From a virus: 38,402 nt of DNA. Positions 8,264 through 23,950 of the stretch are shown one piece after another (within the stretch, counting starts at the first letter, position 1; each line of letters starts with the position of its first letter). The notes under the pieces are model-generated. The model made no database searches. It was not told the DNA's origin and saw only the letters and a list, made by a program, of their open reading frames with translations. The position numbers and the translations under genes are program-made. The DNA lies in the IMG/VR virus record IMGVR_UViG_3300045988_041255, positions 1 to 38,402 of that record, one strand, 5' to 3'.

Positions 8264-8550
8264 TTATCTTCGCCCTCCTTTTCGGGGTCTTCAGGGATGC
8301 CTTTGCTCATGGAGATTTCCTCCACAATCAGGAGGACACGGCCCGCGAATGGCGTGAAGGGGTCTTTGCCCTCCAGAAGCTTGGTGAGAATCTCATCCAG
8401 GTATCGGTCTCCAAGCCCCAGAGTGCCGCCCGACGTGGTGCACAGTGTGCCGATGTACTCGATGTCGACAAGGCGCTTATACGCGGGATTCTCGCTGCTC
8501 TTGTCGTAAGCGGCCACAACCGCGTCTAATGCTTTCGTAAAATCGTTCAT
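8260..8550 (-). CDS. Hypothetical protein
   Basis: 96-aa ORF with an AAAGGAGA RBS. Confidence 0.6.
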   Translation of the reverse strand: MNDFTKALDAVVAAYDKSSENPAYKRLVDIEYIGTLCTTSGGTLGLGDRYLDEILTKLLEGKDPFTPFAGRVLLIVEEISMSKGIPEDPEKEGEDK

Positions 8551-11790: not shown

Positions 11791-11819
11791 TTGACTCAAG
11801 CGGCAATACCTGATATAAT
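11791..11819 (+). promoter_or_regulatory. Near-consensus sigma-70-type promoter
   Basis: TTGACT (11791-96), 17-bp spacer, TATAAT (11814-19). Inverted repeat GGCAAT/ATTGCC (11802-07 / 11824-29) brackets the -10. Confidence 0.7.
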
Positions 11820-11825
11820 CTGGAT

Positions 11826-12118
11826 TGCCATAGATATGGCAGAAAGGAAGTGAGGTCGGCCTTGACCAAACTTTTGATTATGCCCGTTCCAGACTAAAGA
11901 AATTGCGTAACGCGTATGGCTATACGGCAGTCCCAAAGCTGCCAAAGGTTACGGCAAGTCTACAGAATTGCAAGTTCGTTTTGCAAGCAGCGGATGCGCA
12001 TTGCACAAAGGACCGTGTACGTGCCCACCCACATTGGGAGGTTCCGCTGCTGCAAACTTGTTCTGGTAAAAAACTTTGGGAGAAGGCTATCTACTAACGG
12101 ACAGTAGATAGCTTTTTT
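11826..12118 (+). ncRNA. Candidate ~290-nt structured noncoding RNA of the immunity region (class unknown)
   Basis: Bounded by the 11791 promoter and the 12086-12118 terminator. The only ORFs lack an RBS or run into the terminator. A 12-bp long-range stem pairs 11981-93 with 12044-55. Several local hairpins. Confidence 0.5.
12086..12118 (+). terminator. Rho-independent terminator
   Basis: GCTATCTACT-aacggac-AGTAGATAGC followed by TTTTTT. Perfect 10-bp stem. Confidence 0.85.
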
Positions 12119-13278: not shown

Positions 13279-13851
13279 GTGTACAACGTCAAAAGAATCG
13301 CCGCCCTTTTGTACAATGCGCGAACAAAAGCAGGGTGCAGCCAGGAAGGCATTGCCGAAATGCTGGACATCAGCAAGCAGACGGTGAGAAACTGGGAAAA
13401 AGGCACGTCCACGCCGAATTTGCATGAGTTTGTGATGTGGTACAGGGTGCTGGGAATGAACTGCTTCCGCGACATCATGCGCCTGATACACCCGGAGCTT
13501 TATGAGGACTTTGAGGGCAGCGCCGCCGATGTGGAGCAGCGCCGCAACGGCCTTTTTAAGTACCTTGCAGACTGCCCGCCGGGCGAAGTGGACAAGCTGG
13601 CCTTTTTGATCTTCGGGGCGCACGGCTCTGACTGGCCGTCCATGCTAGACGAGTATGTAGCCAATGCACACTGCACCATGCGCAGCCGGGCGGCCGTGTG
13701 CGGGCTGATACTGGATAACTACACCCTCGAGGCAGGCACGGGCGAACTGGTGGTGCCGGAGACGGCCCCGCCGTGCCTGGAAAATCTCAAAAATGCCTAT
13801 GCCGCCGGGAAGAACGCGGCGCACCTGGGCCGGAACGAATACGCGAGGTGA
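13279..13851 (+). CDS. CI-like repressor candidate: XRE HTH plus a C-terminal domain with no recognisable S24 peptidase motif
   Basis: GTG start 8 nt after AAGGAGG. CSQEGIAEMLDISKQTVRNWEKGTSTP. Confidence 0.65.
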   Translation: MYNVKRIAALLYNARTKAGCSQEGIAEMLDISKQTVRNWEKGTSTPNLHEFVMWYRVLGMNCFRDIMRLIHPELYEDFEGSAADVEQRRNGLFKYLADCPPGEVDKLAFLIFGAHGSDWPSMLDEYVANAHCTMRSRAAVCGLILDNYTLEAGTGELVVPETAPPCLENLKNAYAAGKNAAHLGRNEYAR

Positions 13852-13856
13852 GGAAA

Positions 13857-14990
13857 ATGGCAAGGCCTAAAACGCGAAGCGATGGCCTGATAGAGCGCAC
13901 ACGCATGATAAACGGCAAGCAAATGCACTTTTACGGCCACACCGTGAAAGAGGCACAAGCAAAAATGGATGAGGCTATAAAAAAAGCAGCAGCCCGGGAC
14001 GAAAAAGGGCCGCCGTTTGAAGAAGTCGCTGATAAGTTTTGGGCCTACAAGGAGCCACGGCTGAAATACGGCACACAGCGCGGATACCGCCGCGCCGTGA
14101 ATGCGGCAAAAGACTGGTTCAGCGGCGCGGGAATGAAGGAGATCACAACAACGGATATTTCCCGCCGCCTGTCCCAGATGGCCGCCCAGGGCAAGGCCTA
14201 CAAGACAATTGCAAACCAGCGGTCAGTAATTTCGCTGGTCTATCAATTTTGGTGTACCAACATGGACGGAGACCGCAACCCGTGCGACTTGATCCGCCTT
14301 CCGCAGGGGCTGCCGCAAACGAAACGGCATGCACCTACAGACGCGGAAATCGAAAAGGTAAAAGCGCACACCGACGGTTTCGGCCTGTGTGCAGCCTTTG
14401 CAATGTATGCAGGCCTGCGCCTGGGGGAAATCATGGCGTTACAAAAGCGAGACTTGTCTGGCGGGAAAATTCACGTTACAAAGGCCGTTGTATGGCACGC
14501 AAACCAACCGCATATAGAGCCACCGAAAACGGCGAACGCAGTCCGTGTAGTGCCGATTTTGGCCCCTCTTGCCGCAGCGCTTGTAGGGCGGCTTGACGGA
14601 CTGGCCGATGATGATTATATTTTCGGCGGCAACGCCCCCATGACAAACAGCAAGTACGTGAGTGCTTGGCTCAGATACTGCGCGGAGATAGGCTGCACCC
14701 ACGATAGCGGCAGAGTGACCAGCGCGGGAAAAAAGGACAAGCACGGCAAAACCGTTTACAAGCACTTGCCCGCCCCAGATTTCACGGCGCACCAGCTCCG
14801 GCATGAGTTTGCCAGCGTCCTAACTCAATGCGACGTAAGCCCGCAGGTTGCGAAGGAGCTAATGGGTCACGCAGACATCACCACCACTCAAAAGTGGTAT
14901 GCCGAGGCGAAGTCTTGGGCCATAGACGATGCGACAAGAGCTTTAAACGCGCACTATTATCGTAAAAATATCGTAAACGAGCAAAATTAA
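13857..14990 (+). CDS. int: Tyrosine recombinase / phage integrase
   Basis: ATG 13857 after GAGGTGAGGA. C-terminal HQLRHEFAS...LMGHADITTTQKWY (R-H-R-Y type catalytic region). Confidence 0.9.
   Translation: MARPKTRSDGLIERTRMINGKQMHFYGHTVKEAQAKMDEAIKKAAARDEKGPPFEEVADKFWAYKEPRLKYGTQRGYRRAVNAAKDWFSGAGMKEITTTDISRRLSQMAAQGKAYKTIANQRSVISLVYQFWCTNMDGDRNPCDLIRLPQGLPQTKRHAPTDAEIEKVKAHTDGFGLCAAFAMYAGLRLGEIMALQKRDLSGGKIHVTKAVVWHANQPHIEPPKTANAVRVVPILAPLAAALVGRLDGLADDDYIFGGNAPMTNSKYVSAWLRYCAEIGCTHDSGRVTSAGKKDKHGKTVYKHLPAPDFTAHQLRHEFASVLTQCDVSPQVAKELMGHADITTTQKWYAEAKSWAIDDATRALNAHYYRKNIVNEQN
14959..14975 (+). repeat. Copy of the ATCGTAAAAATATCGTA arm-type repeat inside the 3' end of int
   Basis: Identical 17-mer also at 15134-15150 and 15164-15180. 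Confidence 0.8.
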
Positions 14991-18589: not shown

Positions 18590-19003
18590 ATGAAAAAGTA
18601 CAACATGAGCAAAATCATGAAAGACGCATGGTGGGCGATGAAGAAAAACAGTGTGGGTGGAGTTCCCCAGATTAAGTTCTCCGAGGCCCTGAAGATGGCT
18701 TGGGAATGGGCAAAGCGCGAAGCGCTCGTCAAGGCCGCCACCGAAGCCGTTGCAACCTCCGGCAAGTACGATTATATCGTCGCAGAGCCGGACGCGGACA
18801 AGCGGCTGTCCATGGCCCGCAAAGCCCAGCGGGCGCTCGTGAAAGCCCATTGGGCCATGAGTGCAGAGGAGCGCAAAGCCGATCAGATTAATTTTGACGG
18901 CGAAAACAAATTCCTCATCACGCTCAAAGAAGCCTGCCTCCTTTGCGAAGGCGGAAACCCCCTCTGGATGTACACCCTCGGCCCCCTGCCTGAGGATGCA
19001 TAA
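18590..19003 (+). CDS. Hypothetical protein
   Basis: 137 aa with a GGAGG RBS. N-terminal MSKIMKDAWWAMKK...FSEALKMAWEWAK helical motif. Confidence 0.7.
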   Translation: MKKYNMSKIMKDAWWAMKKNSVGGVPQIKFSEALKMAWEWAKREALVKAATEAVATSGKYDYIVAEPDADKRLSMARKAQRALVKAHWAMSAEERKADQINFDGENKFLITLKEACLLCEGGNPLWMYTLGPLPEDA

Positions 19004-19036
19004 CAAGCAATCGAATAAAAAATGGAGGAAGCAACG

Positions 19037-19330
19037 ATGAACATCGTTAAAATTTTGAAAGATGTAGACGGGTGCAAGGCGGGCGAACTGCTAGCCAACC
19101 CCACGAACTGGCTTTGGGAGCTCCCCAGAGACAGCTGGGACATCGCCAGCGTCGAAGATATTGCGGAATATTTCCGCAAGGCCACCGCATACGAAGAGGA
19201 AATGAATCCTTTCGCAGAAGCACTCTGCGAGGCGGCAGGCATCGATTGTAACGCTATGTGGGACGACCCGTCAGGCCCATGGCCGTCGATCGAAGCTGCA
19301 GCCGAGAAGCTGGGCGTGGAAATCTACTAA
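19037..19330 (+). CDS. Small, strongly acidic hypothetical protein (97 aa)
   Basis: ATG 19037 lies 7 nt after GGAGGA. Asp plus Glu greatly outnumber Lys plus Arg. Confidence 0.65.
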   Translation: MNIVKILKDVDGCKAGELLANPTNWLWELPRDSWDIASVEDIAEYFRKATAYEEEMNPFAEALCEAAGIDCNAMWDDPSGPWPSIEAAAEKLGVEIY

Positions 19331-19343
19331 AGGAGGAGAAAAA

Positions 19344-19751
19344 ATGAAGTACGAATGGACTACCGCGAAAGGCTCGAAGGTCAAGCTGGACATCAGCACC
19401 AAAATCATCACCGAGCGGGTGAACAACCTTGACGGGTGGGAATACACCGTGCCCTGCCATGAGTGGATGTACACAATCAACTCACTGCTCGTAAACGGGG
19501 AGGAGCGGAAGGCAGGGGCACACAGGCACGAGTTTGGGCGGTTCCCTGGCCCCCGTCGTGTGGCCTATGAGTTTTATCTCCCAGTAGACGGAAAAAAGCA
19601 GCGGGCGCTTGTGGAAATTCCGCCGGAAATCGAAGAGGCCATTTATGGCGAAGAACGTGCTTATTTTATGGCGAAGTTTGAAAAGGAACAGGCCATCGAA
19701 GAAGCGTATCAAAAGCATCACGATGCAGTGCAGCGCATGCTTGACTTGTAA
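19344..19751 (+). CDS. Hypothetical protein
   Basis: 135 aa with an AAAGGAGGAG RBS. Confidence 0.7.
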   Translation: MKYEWTTAKGSKVKLDISTKIITERVNNLDGWEYTVPCHEWMYTINSLLVNGEERKAGAHRHEFGRFPGPRRVAYEFYLPVDGKKQRALVEIPPEIEEAIYGEERAYFMAKFEKEQAIEEAYQKHHDAVQRMLDL

Positions 19752-19763
19752 GGAGGAAGCGAA

Positions 19764-19985
19764 ATGAAGTTGATCGACGACTTGGAACTCGTGTATGACG
19801 AGACCCCGAAGGGATACTGTGGGGACGGCGGCCACGCCCGCGTTAGAATCGTGGGTAAAAACACGCGCGTGACCGTGTGGCAGGGTGTCACCTGTGCCTG
19901 TGGGCGTGGGTGCTTCGGGTATGACTGCGTGCGTGATGATTGGGGATATCATGACACAGACATTGAAGAGTTCAGGGCGGACTAA
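19764..19985 (+). CDS. Small Cys-rich hypothetical protein
   Basis: 73 aa with a TAAGGAGGAA RBS. CACGRGCFGYDC. Confidence 0.65.
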   Translation: MKLIDDLELVYDETPKGYCGDGGHARVRIVGKNTRVTVWQGVTCACGRGCFGYDCVRDDWGYHDTDIEEFRAD

Positions 19986-19999
19986 GGAGGCAAGAGCAC

Positions 20000-20425
20000 A
20001 TGGTCATTACTTTGGCTGAGTACGCCAAGCGCCACGGCCGTGCACTTGCTACCGTGCGGCAGAAGGCATATAGAGGCGGCTTCAAAACGGCCCACCGTGT
20101 GGGTCGAGACTGGTTCATCGACGAGGACGAGCCGCTCGTGGACAACCGCCGGAAGCTGACGGCGAAAGATGTTTTTACCGCCGAAGCATACGGTCCCGGC
20201 GGGCTGAGCGCCGAAGAGCGGCGGCGCGTGCTCAAACTCGAGCAGGCGAAGGAGATCAGCGGCTGGCGGCAGTACCCCAGCACGTGTGAGGCGATCTTTC
20301 AAAACATCCTCGACGCGGGGATGTTTGACCGCTACGGCGCAATGCAGCTGGGCGAGATCGCCGCCCTGCTGAAAAAAGTTTATGACAAAGGCGTGGCCTA
20401 TGGCCGCGAGCACCCAGAATATTGA
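20000..20425 (+). CDS. Protein with an N-terminal excisionase/MerR-like HTH, last gene of the operon (Aca-like position)
   Basis: ITLAEYAKRHGRALATVRQKAYRGGFKTAHRVGRDWFIDEDEP. RBS TAAGGAGG. Confidence 0.6.
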   Translation: MVITLAEYAKRHGRALATVRQKAYRGGFKTAHRVGRDWFIDEDEPLVDNRRKLTAKDVFTAEAYGPGGLSAEERRRVLKLEQAKEISGWRQYPSTCEAIFQNILDAGMFDRYGAMQLGEIAALLKKVYDKGVAYGREHPEY

Positions 20426-20450
20426 CAATCCGCCCCACGTGGGCTATACT
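20422..20450 (+). promoter_or_regulatory. Near-consensus promoter driving the small RNA
   Basis: TTGACA (overlaps the TGA stop of 20000..20425), 17-bp spacer, TATACT. Confidence 0.65.
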
Positions 20451-20482
20451 GAAGTTGTCCCCACACATGGACGCTTGTGTGG

Positions 20483-20520
20483 CGCGGTGGCCAGCAATTC
20501 CGGCCGCTGTGGATTGAAAC
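20483..20520 (+). CRISPR. Solitary repeat unit: hairpin plus the type I-C-like 11-nt crRNA 5' handle TGGATTGAAAC. Single copy, no array, no cas genes.
   Basis: CGCGGUGGCC-agcaauucc-GGCCGCUGUG stem (10 bp including 3 G-U pairs) running into GTGGATTGAAAC (20509-20520). Type I-C repeats end ...GCGTGGATTGAAAC/T. Confidence 0.45.
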
Positions 20521-20571
20521 ACTTGCAGTATTTGTAACAGGCGCATTTTTTGCATCGGTTATGCCGGAAGC

Positions 20572-20617
20572 AAAAAAGAAGCCCGACGGGAAACACTCCC
20601 GCCGGGCTTCTTTTTTT
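20572..20617. terminator. Bidirectional rho-independent terminator shared by the sRNA/plus operon and the late (lysis) operon
   Basis: AAAAAA-GAAGCCCGACGGG-aaacact-CCCGCCGGGCTTC-TTTTTTT. Confidence 0.85.
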
Positions 20618-20813
20618 ATCTGTTCATTTTGTCGTGGATTGCTCGCGCATAGCGTTTTACTGTGCGCTCGCTGACATTTAATTCGGCTGCAATTTCAGCG
20701 TTTCTGCGTCCTCTTCGGCGCATATCAAGCACCGCGTGCTCGTCGTCTGTGAGTAAAAAACACAGGTCGTCATACTCGCCCCGGCCCATGCAGAAATCGA
20801 ATTTGCTGCCCAT
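20616..20813 (-). CDS. Small sigma-70 region-4 / LuxR-type HTH protein
   Basis: LTDDEHAVLDMRRRGRRNAEIAAELNVSERTVKRYARAIHDKM. Confidence 0.65.
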   Translation of the reverse strand: MGSKFDFCMGRGEYDDLCFLLTDDEHAVLDMRRRGRRNAEIAAELNVSERTVKRYARAIHDKMNR

Positions 20814-20816
20814 AGC

Positions 20817-21077
20817 TTACTCCCCGCCAAGCAGCTGCTTAAACACCTGGTGCAGACCGGTGGACGCAAGACCAGATGCAAGGCCAGACAAAATCACACC
20901 AGCGTCCACAGCAGGCCAGTGCATCCACACGGCCAGAATCACGCCCAGCACGGCGCACATGGTGGGAATGTACTTGTTATCGACATCCTTCACCCACGAC
21001 TTGACGACGTAGCCCACGCACAGGCAGATACCCACGATAACGGGAACCATGTACTCAGAGATAAAAGAAATATCCAT
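20817..21077 (-). CDS. Holin (phi LC3 / LL-H-like family)
   Basis: 86 aa with TM segments VPVIVGICLCVGYVV, IPTMCAVLGVILAVW and GVILSGLASGLASTGL. Adjacent to the endolysin. Confidence 0.7.
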   Translation of the reverse strand: MDISFISEYMVPVIVGICLCVGYVVKSWVKDVDNKYIPTMCAVLGVILAVWMHWPAVDAGVILSGLASGLASTGLHQVFKQLLGGE

Positions 21078-21079
21078 TT

Positions 21080-21331
21080 TTACTCCTCCTCTAGCGCTTT
21101 CAGCCGCTGCTCATGCTGGGCCAGCTCCTTGTCGTGCCCGTCCAGCCGCTTGTAAAAAATCTTGTGGCTTTCGCGGTTTTCGCCTTCCAACTTGTCAAGC
21201 GCCCGCTGGAAGCTGTCAACCGCCACCGTCAGCTTTGTGATGTTGCTGTTGAGCTTGATGAGCGGGCCGCTCACAGAGCCGATAAGCCCGACAAGCACCA
21301 CAACAACACCTACCACCGTCCATTCTTGCAT
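21080..21331 (-). CDS. Lysis-cassette membrane protein (N-terminal TM plus coiled coil)
   Basis: WTVVGVVVVLVGLIGSV, then a heptad-like KLTVAVDSFQRALDKLEGEN...LKALEEE. Confidence 0.5.
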   Translation of the reverse strand: MQEWTVVGVVVVLVGLIGSVSGPLIKLNSNITKLTVAVDSFQRALDKLEGENRESHKIFYKRLDGHDKELAQHEQRLKALEEE

Positions 21332-21332
21332 T

Positions 21333-22298
21333 TCAGCCCTCCAGCAGGGTGGGGTTCACCAGCCCGAGCAGCTTGTCCAGCTTTGCCTCGATACGGCCCA
21401 GCTGCTCGGTGCAGGCGGCGGGGTCGTCCTTACCGCTGTCGGGGGCCGGAGTGGGTTCCGGCGTGGGTTCCGGTTCAGGGGTAGGCTCGGGCGCGGTGTA
21501 CTCCACGCAGCCCACCGCCAGAGCGGCAGCCTTTGCGGCCACCGCCTTCCGGTCGCCCGCGCTGGCGGGGCCGATGATAAGATAGTCGCCCGCATCTTCG
21601 TGGGGCAGGCCCAGGCTGTCCGCCAGGGCTGCCAGGGTTTTGCGGTCGCCGCCCGAAACCGGTCCTACTTTCAGCATGTCACTCATAACATCCTCCTTCT
21701 CGCTGCCGAAAAGCAGCGCTTCATCCGGGCAGAGGTTCGTGTCCACCGGGCCGGAAATGCCGGGCACGCGGCCGCTGCTGCCGGTCTGCCACAACACATA
21801 CGGCCCGGCGTAGGTGCAGGCCGCGGCGTACTGGGCCACCCAGACGGGCAGCGCGGCCAGCGCGGCCATGTCCAGCTGGGTTTCCAGCCAGTTCTTGCTG
21901 GCGTACAGGCCGGGGCGGTATCCGGCAGCCTGCACGGCGGCGCAGAAGCGCTGCACGCAGGCGGTGCGGCCCGCCGTGGTCTGGGCCAGAATGGCCGGTT
22001 CGTATTCCTGGTCAAAAAACAGGGGCAGGTCCAGCCCTCGCCCGGCCAGCACCTGCAGGCAGGCAACGGCCTCGCTGGCCGCATCGTCAGGGCTGGAAGC
22101 GTAGCTGTACCAGTACGCGCCCACCTTCAGGCCCGCGGCCTTTGCGCCCGTGTAGTTGGCGGCAAAGTACGGGTCCGCCTGGGTGGCGGTGTTGCCGTAG
22201 CCCGCCCGCAGAATGGCGAACCGCACCCCGCTGGCGGCCACCTGGGGCCAGTCAATGCTGCCCTGGTGCTTGCTTACATCGATGCCTTGAATGCTCAT
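21333..22298 (-). CDS. Endolysin: GH25 muramidase with a C-terminal repeat/linker region
   Basis: ATG 22298 behind GAGGAGG. GIDVSKHQGSIDW...FAILRAGYG...DPYF..N...AGLKVGAYWY...FFDQE. Repeats GPVSGGDRKTLAALA / GPASAGDRKAVAAKA. PEPTPEPEPTPEPTP linker. Confidence 0.85.
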   Translation of the reverse strand: MSIQGIDVSKHQGSIDWPQVAASGVRFAILRAGYGNTATQADPYFAANYTGAKAAGLKVGAYWYSYASSPDDAASEAVACLQVLAGRGLDLPLFFDQEYEPAILAQTTAGRTACVQRFCAAVQAAGYRPGLYASKNWLETQLDMAALAALPVWVAQYAAACTYAGPYVLWQTGSSGRVPGISGPVDTNLCPDEALLFGSEKEDVMSDMLKVGPVSGGDRKTLAALADSLGLPHEDAGDYLIIGPASAGDRKAVAAKAAALAVGCVEYTAPEPTPEPEPTPEPTPAPDSGKDDPAACTEQLGRIEAKLDKLLGLVNPTLLEG

Positions 22299-22309
22299 AA
22301 AACCTCCTC

Positions 22310-23950
22310 TCAAACGCGGTAAATGCACACCGCACCCAGCTCAGAGTAGCGGCTGCTGCCACTGGTAATGGACACCCATTGAGAGCCGTCGAGCGTAAAT
22401 GTGCCCTGCCCGCCCCAGATGGTGCAGCCGTATTCGCGCTCCGGTCCGTAAATTCGCGTGGCGAGATTGCCCGCATCCGCGATATAGCAGCCTGTCAGGT
22501 CGGCGATAGCACCGCACGCGCGGTAGGTGCCTGCCGGGAGCCAGCATCCCCAGCCGCCGAAACCGGAGGTACCGCCCACCGTGTAGGCCAGCTTGAGCCG
22601 GTTGGGGCTGCCGCCGCTCCAGCGGTTGTCCCCCACGGTCGCAAACATCGCCATGGCGTGGGAAGTCCCGGCAACGTCCAGCACCGTTTCGCCCGCGCCC
22701 AGCTTTCCCGCCGTCAGGCCAATAGCGCTGGCAACGCTGGCGTAGCTGTCGCCCACATAGCTTTCGCCGTTGTAGTAGCCTTTCGGAGGCTTAAGAAAAA
22801 CGCGGGACACTCCGTCCGTGTTTAAGTAGGCCTGCGTATCCCGTTCTACTGGCGTAACTGCGACGCTTGGGAAGGAGGCGGATGCGCCCACAGCCCCGTT
22901 TTGGCCCACCGTGTTGCGTGGCAGGATTTCACCGATTTTAAGCGTTTTGTCTCCAGAATAAAACTTTTTGCCAGAAATCACGTCTCCGGTGTCGGCAGTG
23001 GCGAGGGCGAGCTTGGTATTCGACAGGCCCCCGCCACCATTAAAATTTATCTGCGTACCGTCCTGCGTAAAGGTCAGCCACCGGCCCGTGACGGATTCAC
23101 CGGCCAGCGCATCGGCAAAGGTTTCCGCGCCCACATAGGCGGGCACGGTTTTGCCGTTCACCTGCACTGTGTCGCCCGCCGCCACGTTGGCGGTCAGTTT
23201 GACGCGGCCGCTTGCGCCGCTGCCGGTCAGCTTGTGGGCGGTGCCGACTTTGGTGTGCTGATACAGGTGCACGCCTTGCGAATCAGCATACGCAAACACG
23301 TCTTGTCCGCGCCCTTTCGGGTCGTATGTGGCTTTCAGCATTGTGGCCGTACCGGCGTTTAAGTCGCTCAATTCTTTTCGAATTGCCGTCAAATATTCCG
23401 TGAACTGCTGGTTCATGGTGGTGGTGTCCACCGTCACCCAGTCAGTCACGATGCCGCACACGGACTTGTCAAGCCGCTCGTCGGTGATGTTGGCACTGGT
23501 GAGCTTGCTTGCAGCCGCCGCAACGTAAATCTGCGCCAGTGAAATCTGGCGTTTCAGCGTGTTGTTTGTAAGTGTAGGCGCTGCCGGAGACGCCGCCGGG
23601 GTGCCTTGCAGCAGCTCAATGCGCGGCTTTGCGGCATAGTCTACCGTGTCCCACGTCACCACAACGCGGTCAATGCGCGGATTCACCGCATTCGCGATTG
23701 TGGCAGTGAGCTTCAGCTCTGAGCCGGTGGTGTTCTTGTTGTCGTTCCAGAATACGCTGCCGTCCCCCTCGCTGTTGGACAGCCAGCCCACGCCGTCGGA
23801 TACTTTCACGGTCATGCCGCTGTCCAGTGTCACCGCGAGGTTATTTTCCGCGCCAAAAACGCCGCTGGTGCGCCCGTGCAGCCACTTCATTACGTATTCA
23901 GCCCCGATGTACTCGTCCGAGTTGTTCGGGAAATTTTTGATTTCGGCCAA
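22310..23950 (-). CDS. Tail fibre / receptor-binding protein
   Basis: 546 aa, TTG start 5 nt after GGGGTG. Lies between the Tal-like gene and the lysis genes. Gly/Thr/Ala-rich and beta-rich. Confidence 0.6.
   Translation of the reverse strand: MAEIKNFPNNSDEYIGAEYVMKWLHGRTSGVFGAENNLAVTLDSGMTVKVSDGVGWLSNSEGDGSVFWNDNKNTTGSELKLTATIANAVNPRIDRVVVTWDTVDYAAKPRIELLQGTPAASPAAPTLTNNTLKRQISLAQIYVAAAASKLTSANITDERLDKSVCGIVTDWVTVDTTTMNQQFTEYLTAIRKELSDLNAGTATMLKATYDPKGRGQDVFAYADSQGVHLYQHTKVGTAHKLTGSGASGRVKLTANVAAGDTVQVNGKTVPAYVGAETFADALAGESVTGRWLTFTQDGTQINFNGGGGLSNTKLALATADTGDVISGKKFYSGDKTLKIGEILPRNTVGQNGAVGASASFPSVAVTPVERDTQAYLNTDGVSRVFLKPPKGYYNGESYVGDSYASVASAIGLTAGKLGAGETVLDVAGTSHAMAMFATVGDNRWSGGSPNRLKLAYTVGGTSGFGGWGCWLPAGTYRACGAIADLTGCYIADAGNLATRIYGPEREYGCTIWGGQGTFTLDGSQWVSITSGSSRYSELGAVCIYRV

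Follow-up and report, generated by a model that had tools for sequence, protein, structure and literature searches.

What is the small transcription unit that lies between two convergent gene blocks of the temperate tailed phage IMGVR_UViG_3300045988_041255, and why might it carry, once and exactly, the sequence that type I-C CRISPR-Cas systems leave at the 5′ end of their CRISPR RNAs (crRNAs)? Here we analyse this unit within its 38,402-bp window, that is, the whole stretch of phage DNA under study, which is apparently an entire metagenomic contig (ENA ERZ27229654 k119_346157). The reading that we favour, and to which we give about even odds, is that the unit is a phage RNA anti-CRISPR (Racr) directed against type I-C, where it would act as a decoy for Cas5c and Cascade. 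A sequence-only reading of the window had described a promoter, two hairpins, a handle and a terminator in this interval, and all of them are present:

20422-20450, plus strand: sigma-70-type promoter, TTGACA-17 nt-TATACT, matching 11 of 12 consensus positions.
20457-20617, plus strand: predicted primary transcript of about 160 nt, with its start placed from the −10 box.
20461-20482, plus strand: 5′ hairpin (CCACACA/UGUGUGG; 20461-67 pairs with 20476-82), stacked directly on the repeat-like hairpin.
20483-20511, plus strand: repeat-like hairpin (20483-92 pairs with 20502-11), with 10 pairs, including 3 G.U pairs, and the 9-nt loop AGCAAUUCC.
20510-20520, plus strand: 11-nt type I-C crRNA 5′ handle, UGGAUUGAAAC, exact and present in a single copy in the window.
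20521-20571, plus strand: 51-nt tail between handle and terminator, with weak hairpins at about 20524-20545 and 20546-20577.
20572-20616, both strands: bidirectional intrinsic terminator, common to the unit and the convergent late (lysis) operon.

The −35 box contains the TGA stop codon of a 141-amino-acid (aa) gene (open reading frame (ORF) 20000-20425). Promoters with at least 11 of 12 consensus positions number three in the window, both strands included, against a mean of 0.29 in shuffled sequences. In one relative (L032; related sequences are labelled L followed by a number) the −10 box is TATAAT, which makes the promoter 12/12, and in another (L079) the promoter box is missing, as is the cassette itself. 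Each of the two terminator arms (20572-91 and 20597-616) has 20 nt; they are 95% complementary and have an A-run and a T-run at their sides. The 164-nt RNA folds to −68.7 kcal/mol (z = −4.3). Given the near-consensus promoter and the terminator, the small RNA is predicted to be expressed. Two ORFs overlap the unit, one of 16 codons with an ATG start and one of 65 aa with a GTG start; a protein-coding reading of either was ruled out, as a 2-nt deletion in the loop of L032 and homopolymer indels break the frames in relatives. Because such indels disrupt every overlapping ORF, the unit is non-coding; the earlier reading had seen no ORF with a ribosome-binding site here.

The 12-mer GTGGATTGAAAC at 20509-20520 is the sole exact copy in the window, and the 19-mer GGCCGCTGTGGATTGAAAC has no other match there even when 3 mismatches are allowed. 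The chance expectation for the 12-mer is about 0.005 per window, a figure weakened by selection over many scanned windows. The hairpin had been described as running into the handle; its pairs are present, and the junction can be given more precisely. A core stem of 8 bp (2 G.U), from C20485 to G20509, ends at the expected cleavage site, and the last two pairs of the hairpin (C20483-G20511 and G20484.U20510) overlap the first two bases of the handle. The 36 nt ending at G20509 fold to −12.7 kcal/mol. The 5′ hairpin, which is unchanged in all six sequence variants of the unit, is probably a stabilizer of the 5′ end.

The unit is also solitary, as had been claimed. No second repeat-like element occurs at 20-60 nt from the handle, where there are only weak hairpins and, 3′ of them, the terminator; no direct repeat or diverged copy of the unit was found in the flanks or elsewhere in the window, and no cas genes are among the annotated ORFs. 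Thus the regularly spaced copies and nearby cas genes that define an array are not seen, and the element is a single copy. It is intergenic, between the stop codon at 20425 and the convergent gene end at 20616, and has no repeat-like sequence of more than 70% identity within 100 bp, as SRUFinder specifies for solitary repeat units.

How far does this element resemble a type I-C repeat? The canonical I-C repeat has a GU 5′ overhang, a GC-rich stem of 7-8 bp (GUCGC...GCG), a loop of 4-5 nt and an 11-nt tail, about 32-33 nt in all, and Cas5c, which tolerates changes in the loop and the 5′ overhang, reads above all the stem base, U22-G23-G24 and the 3′ tail (PMC8524198). The I-C tail, UGGAUUGAAA(C/U), is found exactly at 20510-20520, as in real arrays and in published I-C solitary repeats. 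The core stem closes on the G that precedes UGG, with the two further predicted pairs covering U20510 and G20511, so the Cas5c cut would be expected between G20509 and U20510. A covariance model (R1) built from seven canonical I-C repeats, taken from real metagenomic arrays and published solitary repeats, ranks this site first in the window. Genuine I-C arrays in JGI and ENA metagenome contigs carry a 33-nt repeat, GTCGCTCCCCATGCGGGGAGCGTGGATTGAAAC (L126-L130), or an unusually long repeat of 37 nt, GTCGCTCCTCTCTCCGGAGGGGGGCGTGGATTGAAAC (L125). The canonical repeat GTCGCTCCCCATGCGGGGAGCGTGGATTGAAAC and the unit share the 11-nt 3′ tail, the preceding G and a hairpin that ends at the Cas5c site. 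They differ in that the unit is unrepeated, begins with CG rather than GU, has another stem and a 9-nt loop, and is predicted to pair two bases into the handle. Its total of 38 nt is within the natural range, since the 37-nt repeat indicates that natural I-C hairpins can be as long as the one in the window. The earlier description of a type I-C-like repeat therefore stands for the exact handle and the position of the hairpin, but not for the remaining sequence and geometry, as the covariance model aligns the handle alone.

We take the last 8 nt of the unit, AUUGAAAC, to be the common 8-nt handle. Type I-G (formerly I-U) repeats, which are 36 nt long with a long hairpin, are cut a few nt 3′ of the stem and also leave an 8-nt handle (PMC9638904), so I-C is not the sole possible subtype. 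In contrast to type I-G, however, the unit has U-G-G directly 5′ of AUUGAAAC and a G at the stem base, which is the I-C signature. I-C is thus the likely and best call, not an exclusive one.

These features suggest how the unit could act. A strong constitutive promoter would yield an RNA of about 160 nt, in which the repeat-like hairpin and UGGAUUGAAAC would imitate the part of an I-C repeat that Cas5c reads, namely the stem base, U-G-G and the 11-nt 3′ tail. Cas5c would bind this RNA, would probably cut it after G20509 and would remain on the handle-bearing product, while Cas7 subunits would load on the 51-nt tail. The resulting complexes would be useless because the tail has no target and is wrong both in its length and at its 3′ end, and they would vie for Cas proteins with the crRNAs of the host, leading to less interference against the phage or prophage. 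The observations in favour of a Racr are the exact handle, placed directly after a hairpin whose closure is at the G of the canonical cleavage site; the dedicated promoter and strong terminator of a solitary, non-coding unit without cas genes; and its nature as a conserved accessory cassette, the independent recurrence of the design in about 25 contigs and the lack of a tail target in the searches made, all of which are detailed below.

Racrs made of solitary repeats work against types I-F, I-E, V-A and I-C; RacrIC1 rescues phage titres by 4-5 logs against I-C, and a non-targeting crRNA likewise lowers interference (PMC10651486). The earlier proposal of an RNA anti-CRISPR accordingly remains the best available reading, evenly balanced as it is, and the unit does resemble the published Racrs. 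RacrIC1, from a Bifidobacterium pseudocatenulatum prophage (Camara-Wilpert et al. 2023, PMC10651486), is likewise a phage-borne, intergenic solitary repeat look-alike with a promoter within 250 bp, and both have the I-C hairpin and handle determinants, no cas genes, no target and a location in an accessory region. The expected action, titration of Cas proteins into aberrant complexes, would also be shared with Racrs. RacrIC1 differs in lying 11 nt 3′ of acrIC5, with which it forms one bicistronic RNA (PMC10651486), whereas the unit has its own promoter, a 5′ hairpin, a conserved 51-nt tail, a longer hairpin (8-10 bp with a 9-nt loop) and no recognizable anti-CRISPR (acr) neighbour. Particular to the unit are thus a hairpin unrelated to canonical repeats or to any array in GTDB, a dedicated promoter, the 5′ hairpin and the long conserved tail. 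Its sequence and its contigs are not among the rows of the published solitary-repeat table (PMC10651486) that were accessible.

Could the identity with the handle be a coincidence? A functional phage small RNA outside CRISPR, for example a regulator of phage or host mRNA, would account for the promoter, terminator, structure and conservation, which suit any functional small RNA, and no more than 12-15 nt are like canonical repeats. Of the 76 IMG/VR stretches that contain the 15-mer GCTGTGGATTGAAAC, about 48 are ordinary coding or chance sites, and all 14 matches to the 18-mer GCCGCTGTGGATTGAAAC in GTDB are at chance level. Against a coincidence, the handle is exact over 11 nt with the preceding G, and the stable hairpin (−12.7 kcal/mol) closes exactly at the cleavage-site G, when about 2 of the roughly 48 chance sites of the 15-mer had a hairpin as strong. 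No complementary target of at least 11 nt is present in the phage genome. The hairpin-and-handle design also recurs in unrelated phages, alongside Cas12a repeats. We therefore consider a small RNA unconnected with CRISPR distinctly unlikely. Chance as the explanation of hairpin plus handle is likewise improbable, if anything slightly more so, because the selection by scanning is offset by a hairpin that closes on the cleavage-site G, by the placement between genes, by an orientation that fits the promoter and the terminator, by conservation and by the return of the design in unrelated phages.

The recurrence concerns about 25 unrelated viral contigs in which the 15-mer ends units of the form GUC-AGCC...GGCU-G followed by UGGAUUGAAAC, with stems of 5-8 bp and a variable apical part and loop. 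In 12 of these a Cas12a (type V-A) repeat, AATTTCTACT-N-GTAGAT, follows within 5-15 nt on the 3′ side, and in others a terminator follows after about 17 nt. The same Cas12a repeat motif is seen in the RacrVA2 primer (PMC10651486). Several of the unrelated I-C-like units have a hairpin immediately 5′, as in the window. The short-tailed units look like decoys, since they leave no room for a guide, and they show that I-C hairpin-and-handle units other than canonical repeats are deployed by phages. Nineteen compact units were compared with that of the window (L010, L014, L017, L018, L023, L028, L040, L045, L052, L054, L057 and L070, together with L006, L007, L037, L049, L067, L069 and L075). They share the GCUG junction with UGGAUUGAAAC and the position of the hairpin, often have another hairpin immediately 5′, and are solitary or in short mixed series. 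They differ in having the canonical GU overhang, stems of 5-8 bp and short tails, 5-20 nt in length, which lead into a Cas12a repeat or a terminator; in the window unit the hairpin is longer, and the tail is long and conserved. The first twelve of these sequences carry the tandem arrangement GTCAGCC-loop-GGCTG, TGGATTGAAAC and a V-A repeat, and in one of them, L017, the V-A unit is preceded by a pair of I-C-like units whose starts are 47 nt apart, with a 20-nt linker.

Six sequence variants of the unit itself were found; they come from four contigs in IMG/VR, several in ENA/Logan and one in JGI. The first IMG/VR scan missed IMGVR_UViG_3300045988_053169 (L080/L113), an exact carrier of the 15-mer that later scans found; exact-match scans of collections can therefore miss sites, perhaps at the edges of storage chunks, and are not exhaustive. 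The unit is 96.3-98.8% identical in relatives, against 74-94% for the flanking coding DNA. With respect to L005 and L080, the small RNA is 98.8% identical, the upstream coding sequence 81-85%, the 65-aa helix-turn-helix (HTH) gene 94%, the holin 74%, and the third-codon positions of the two neighbouring genes 69-86%. Within the hairpin, position 20488 is U (pairing as U.G), C (C-G, in L129) or G (a mismatch, in L032, which also has the 2-nt loop deletion), and the other pairs are invariant. The sequence-only reading had looked to related phages for conservation and covariation: hairpin and 12-nt match are indeed kept, but no compensatory changes are found among six near-identical variants.

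The distribution of the unit is that of an accessory cassette. L079, whose 141-aa protein is 92% identical, has another stop context, no promoter and a different gene in place of the small RNA, which is not present 3′ of its 141-aa homologue. In phages with a 65-aa HTH gene of 70-94% identity the small RNA is missing, and the junction consists of a compact bidirectional terminator alone, beyond which unrelated cargo genes lie. As relatives hold the terminator and unrelated genes where the small RNA sits, the spot beside the lysis genes is a hypervariable cargo locus, with the small RNA as one alternative cargo. Anti-defence genes typically show such an accessory distribution. At the junction 3′ of the lysis cassette (window 20425-20616; L116-L124 and L131-L137), at least four unrelated gene sets were counted among the phages with 70-94%-identical HTH genes: genes of 158, 138 (ribbon-helix-helix) and 143 aa; of 111, 66-77 and 148 aa; of 179 and 45 aa; and the 141-aa gene with the small RNA.

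This pattern bears on the possibility that the unit is a functionless remnant, either of a decaying phage CRISPR array or of the 3′ untranslated region of the upstream operon. Solitary repeats can be left from lost arrays (PMC10120712), and the unit does sit between a stop codon and a shared terminator. It is, however, more conserved than both flanking genes, its handle is exact rather than eroded, and its near-consensus promoter is its own and is lost along with the cassette in L079. Since relatives without the unit keep the compact terminator only, the unit behaves as an inserted cassette and not as spacer DNA. We regard a remnant as very improbable.

Does the tail carry a message? The sequence-only reading had offered, as its alternative, that the approximately 35 nt after the handle are a spacer that redirects the type I-C complex of the host towards a competitor or a host gene. 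As a true spacer, they would send Cascade-Cas3 against another phage, a plasmid or a gene of the host, in superinfection exclusion or hijacking. Viral mini-arrays with anti-virus spacers are known (PMC10120712), and the intact handle makes loading onto Cascade conceivable. Yet the tail (20521-20575) has no significant protospacer or complement in 50,697 phage records or 72,556 plasmids (nothing better than E of about 1), nor any complementary or protospacer target within the window. Six other IMG/VR sites that share 17-18 nt with the tail lack a TTC protospacer-adjacent motif, and the match does not extend. Moreover, no downstream repeat is present to set the 3′ end, and the tails of the related phage units are far too short for a spacer. 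With no significant target in phages, plasmids, window or fetched loci, this proposal is not supported, and we would give a redirecting spacer scarcely any credence.

A regulatory guide is a different matter. In such a viral crRNA-like regulatory RNA (Cracr, or crlRNA), the handle and tail processed by Cas5c would guide I-C Cascade to the promoter of host cas genes or to a toxin gene that guards CRISPR, and would silence immunity at the transcriptional level instead of only tying up Cas proteins. We judge this unlikely, though it is an option to be kept in sight, and the same applies to the idea that the tail seed is ACUUGCAGUAUU, with partial complementarity to a host target. Viral Cracrs have been described for types V-A, I-F, I-E, I-C and I-B (Liu et al., bioRxiv 10.1101/2024.10.29.618823), as have viral regulatory mini-arrays (Shmakov et al., PMC10120712). 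Like the unit, they are phage-carried and include I-C examples, and their repeat-like parts are degenerate, with conservation concentrated beside the spacer; in the unit, all six variants agree over the first 24 nt of the tail. L041 and L058 also fit a guide, since they hold phage I-C-like units that have the same handle and similar seeds but unrelated hairpins.

L041 (1140-1375) and L058 (minus strand; handle ends at 8408, 8530 and 8600, in reverse-complement coordinates) have three I-C-like units each, with different hairpins and the same handle, spaced 121-122 and 70-71 nt apart. In both, the first two handles are followed by a similar seed (CTATTnGGGGA-like), and the third seed is partly similar in L041 and different in L058. 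These series resemble published viral Cracr arrays.

Several results speak against a regulatory guide in the window. Published type I examples are repeat-spacer-repeat, whereas the unit has no second repeat-like hairpin at spacer distance, and its tail is predicted to be partly structured. No promoter target was found: TTC-flanked seed matches were not above chance in 0.96 Mb of fetched loci, nor in the window. A scan of the JGI metagenome for the handle plus the first 9 tail bases returned no host CreR/CreA-like counterpart; it returned one phage relative and ordinary I-C arrays whose spacers start with these bases by chance. The absence of a tail target, of a host counterpart and of a second repeat, together with the partly structured tail, favours a Racr-type decoy. 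The guide keeps some weight because the first 24 nt of the tail are invariant and the target searches covered phages, plasmids, the window and the fetched loci.

Returning to the Racr decoy, a number of observations weigh against it. The geometry is not canonical: the unit has a CG overhang, a stem of 8-10 bp with 2-3 G.U pairs, a 9-nt loop and 38 nt in total. Its stem sequence is unrelated to canonical I-C repeats, so that the match is confined to the 3′ 12-15 nt and the position of the hairpin, whereas the published Racr candidates were chosen for an identity of 90% or more to real repeats, across 90% or more of the length (PMC10651486). The canonical-repeat covariance model gives 14.9 bits (E of about 0.05, a rough value) with the handle alone aligned, and no CRISPR-DR model of Rfam is significant, CRISPR-DR18 scoring 15 bits against a gathering score of 50. 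No array with the 3′ 18-mer GCCGCTGTGGATTGAAAC was found in 185,579 GTDB species genomes, nor did a prophage copy of this 18-mer, which is specific to the small RNA, turn up in those genomes. The predicted stem reaches 2 bp into the U-G-G that Cas5c must read, which could be a hindrance. The tail is as conserved as the handle, which is not required of the tail of a passive decoy, and the high conservation could reflect recent horizontal spread of the cassette. Covariation in the hairpin cannot be counted, as only six near-identical variants were found by scans with three sub-strings, a metagenome scan, and searches with neighbouring proteins and their homologues. No recognizable acr gene is nearby, as judged by comparing the neighbouring proteins with PHROGs, Pfam and PDB sequences. 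When 427 I-C spacers, taken from array-like series of I-C handles within the fetched loci, were compared with the phage family, only chance matches of 13-18 nt resulted. In addition, the first-stage scan picked the window for this very motif, which makes chance more likely, and the presence of an I-C system in the host is the main premise and is assumed.

The 14 GTDB matches to GCCGCTGTGGATTGAAAC are about the number expected by chance; two in Mailhella with an upstream hairpin were dismissed, as they lie beside or inside housekeeping genes (amidase and EF-G). In Rfam searches, with gathering thresholds for the window and E ≤ 10 for the locus, the unit fell into no credible family, and the other matches at the unit were dismissed as terminator look-alikes.

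SRUFinder accepts a unit that is at least 90% identical over at least 90% of a known, subtype-assigned repeat (PMC10651486), a threshold that the present unit would probably fail. With a non-canonical stem and loop and no array in GTDB, the unit appears instead to mimic the Cas5c determinants (stem base, UGG and tail) and not to copy a known repeat. Taken further, there may be 'minimal-determinant' mimics that place only the parts read by Cas5c on an uncopied hairpin, escape similarity searches and could act across I-C hosts, with a conserved tail that has a second job; we hold this to be rather improbable. The second job might be that of a guide or regulatory seed, of a scaffold for an aberrant Cas7 filament, or of a Cas5c trap without cleavage, by way of the stem that covers U-G.

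The unit is set at a junction: the late operon converges here on a short block of five small ORFs that are on the plus strand. A minus-strand run from 38026 to 20616 holds terminase, portal, tape measure, tail and lysis genes; replication, anti-repressor and ParB-like genes are further left in the window. The features around the junction, and the integrase, are:

13773-14990: integrase.
20000-20425, plus strand: 141-aa gene, the last of the five small ORFs, with a weakly excisionase/HTH-like N terminus (PHROG matches at E of 0.005-0.01 only).
20616-20813, minus strand: 65-aa GerE/LuxR-type HTH gene, convergent, at the end of the lysis cassette.
20817-21077, minus strand: holin, lysis cassette.
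21080-21331, minus strand: 83-aa ORF, lysis cassette.
21333-22328, minus strand: GH25 endolysin, lysis cassette.

The five small plus-strand ORFs (18590-20425; 137, 102, 135, 73 and 141 aa) lie directly 5′ of the repeat mimic. None has a Pfam or PHROG assignment, and the four that were queried against PDB sequences gave nothing significant; the 141-aa protein is without a match in Pfam and PDB searches. They are candidate anti-defence genes, though nothing ties them to known anti-CRISPR proteins. The nearest cultured relative of the phage is Flavonifractor phage Chenonceau, which has no handle-like motif and whose portal protein is 69% identical, making an Oscillospiraceae-like Clostridia host plausible. 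The INPHARED phage collection holds no close relative of the window. All contigs that carry the unit are metagenomic, and some of their record names indicate gut samples.

Each of the three promoters with at least 11 of 12 consensus positions (2042, minus strand; 11791 and 20422, plus strand) precedes an RNA gene: a tRNA-Thr/tRNA-Gln pair, FuFi-1 and the repeat mimic, respectively. FuFi-1 (Rfam RF02986), a phage-associated RNA motif, is full-length at 11905-12117 on the plus strand (114 bits, E of 2e-24) and starts about 85 nt 3′ of its promoter (11791-11819). The two phage tRNAs, Gln-UUG and Thr-UGU, are at 1411-1663 on the minus strand. Between them is a GC-rich hairpin (1491-1527) that scores 40 bits, against a threshold of 37, with the abiF RNA model of Rfam and may be a false positive.

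Both mechanisms considered here, the RNA decoy and the crRNA-like guide, are already published, including for I-C, and because the principle is known the gain is incremental. Type I-C is among the commonest CRISPR systems in gut Firmicutes and is used in genome editing. If active, the unit would give type I-C CRISPR-Cas a second RNA inhibitor, divergent in structure and originating from a gut Clostridia phage that is uncultured, and, in practical terms, would offer I-C tools a candidate off-switch that is compact (about 40-160 nt) and defined in sequence. Its activity would also mean that repeat mimics can drift far from real repeats and yet keep the Cas5c determinants. If so, RNA anti-CRISPRs would be undercounted in catalogues that ask for 90% identity to known repeats, and the approximately 25 other I-C-like units of non-canonical form in IMG/VR, of which many are fused to Cas12a repeats, suggest as much.

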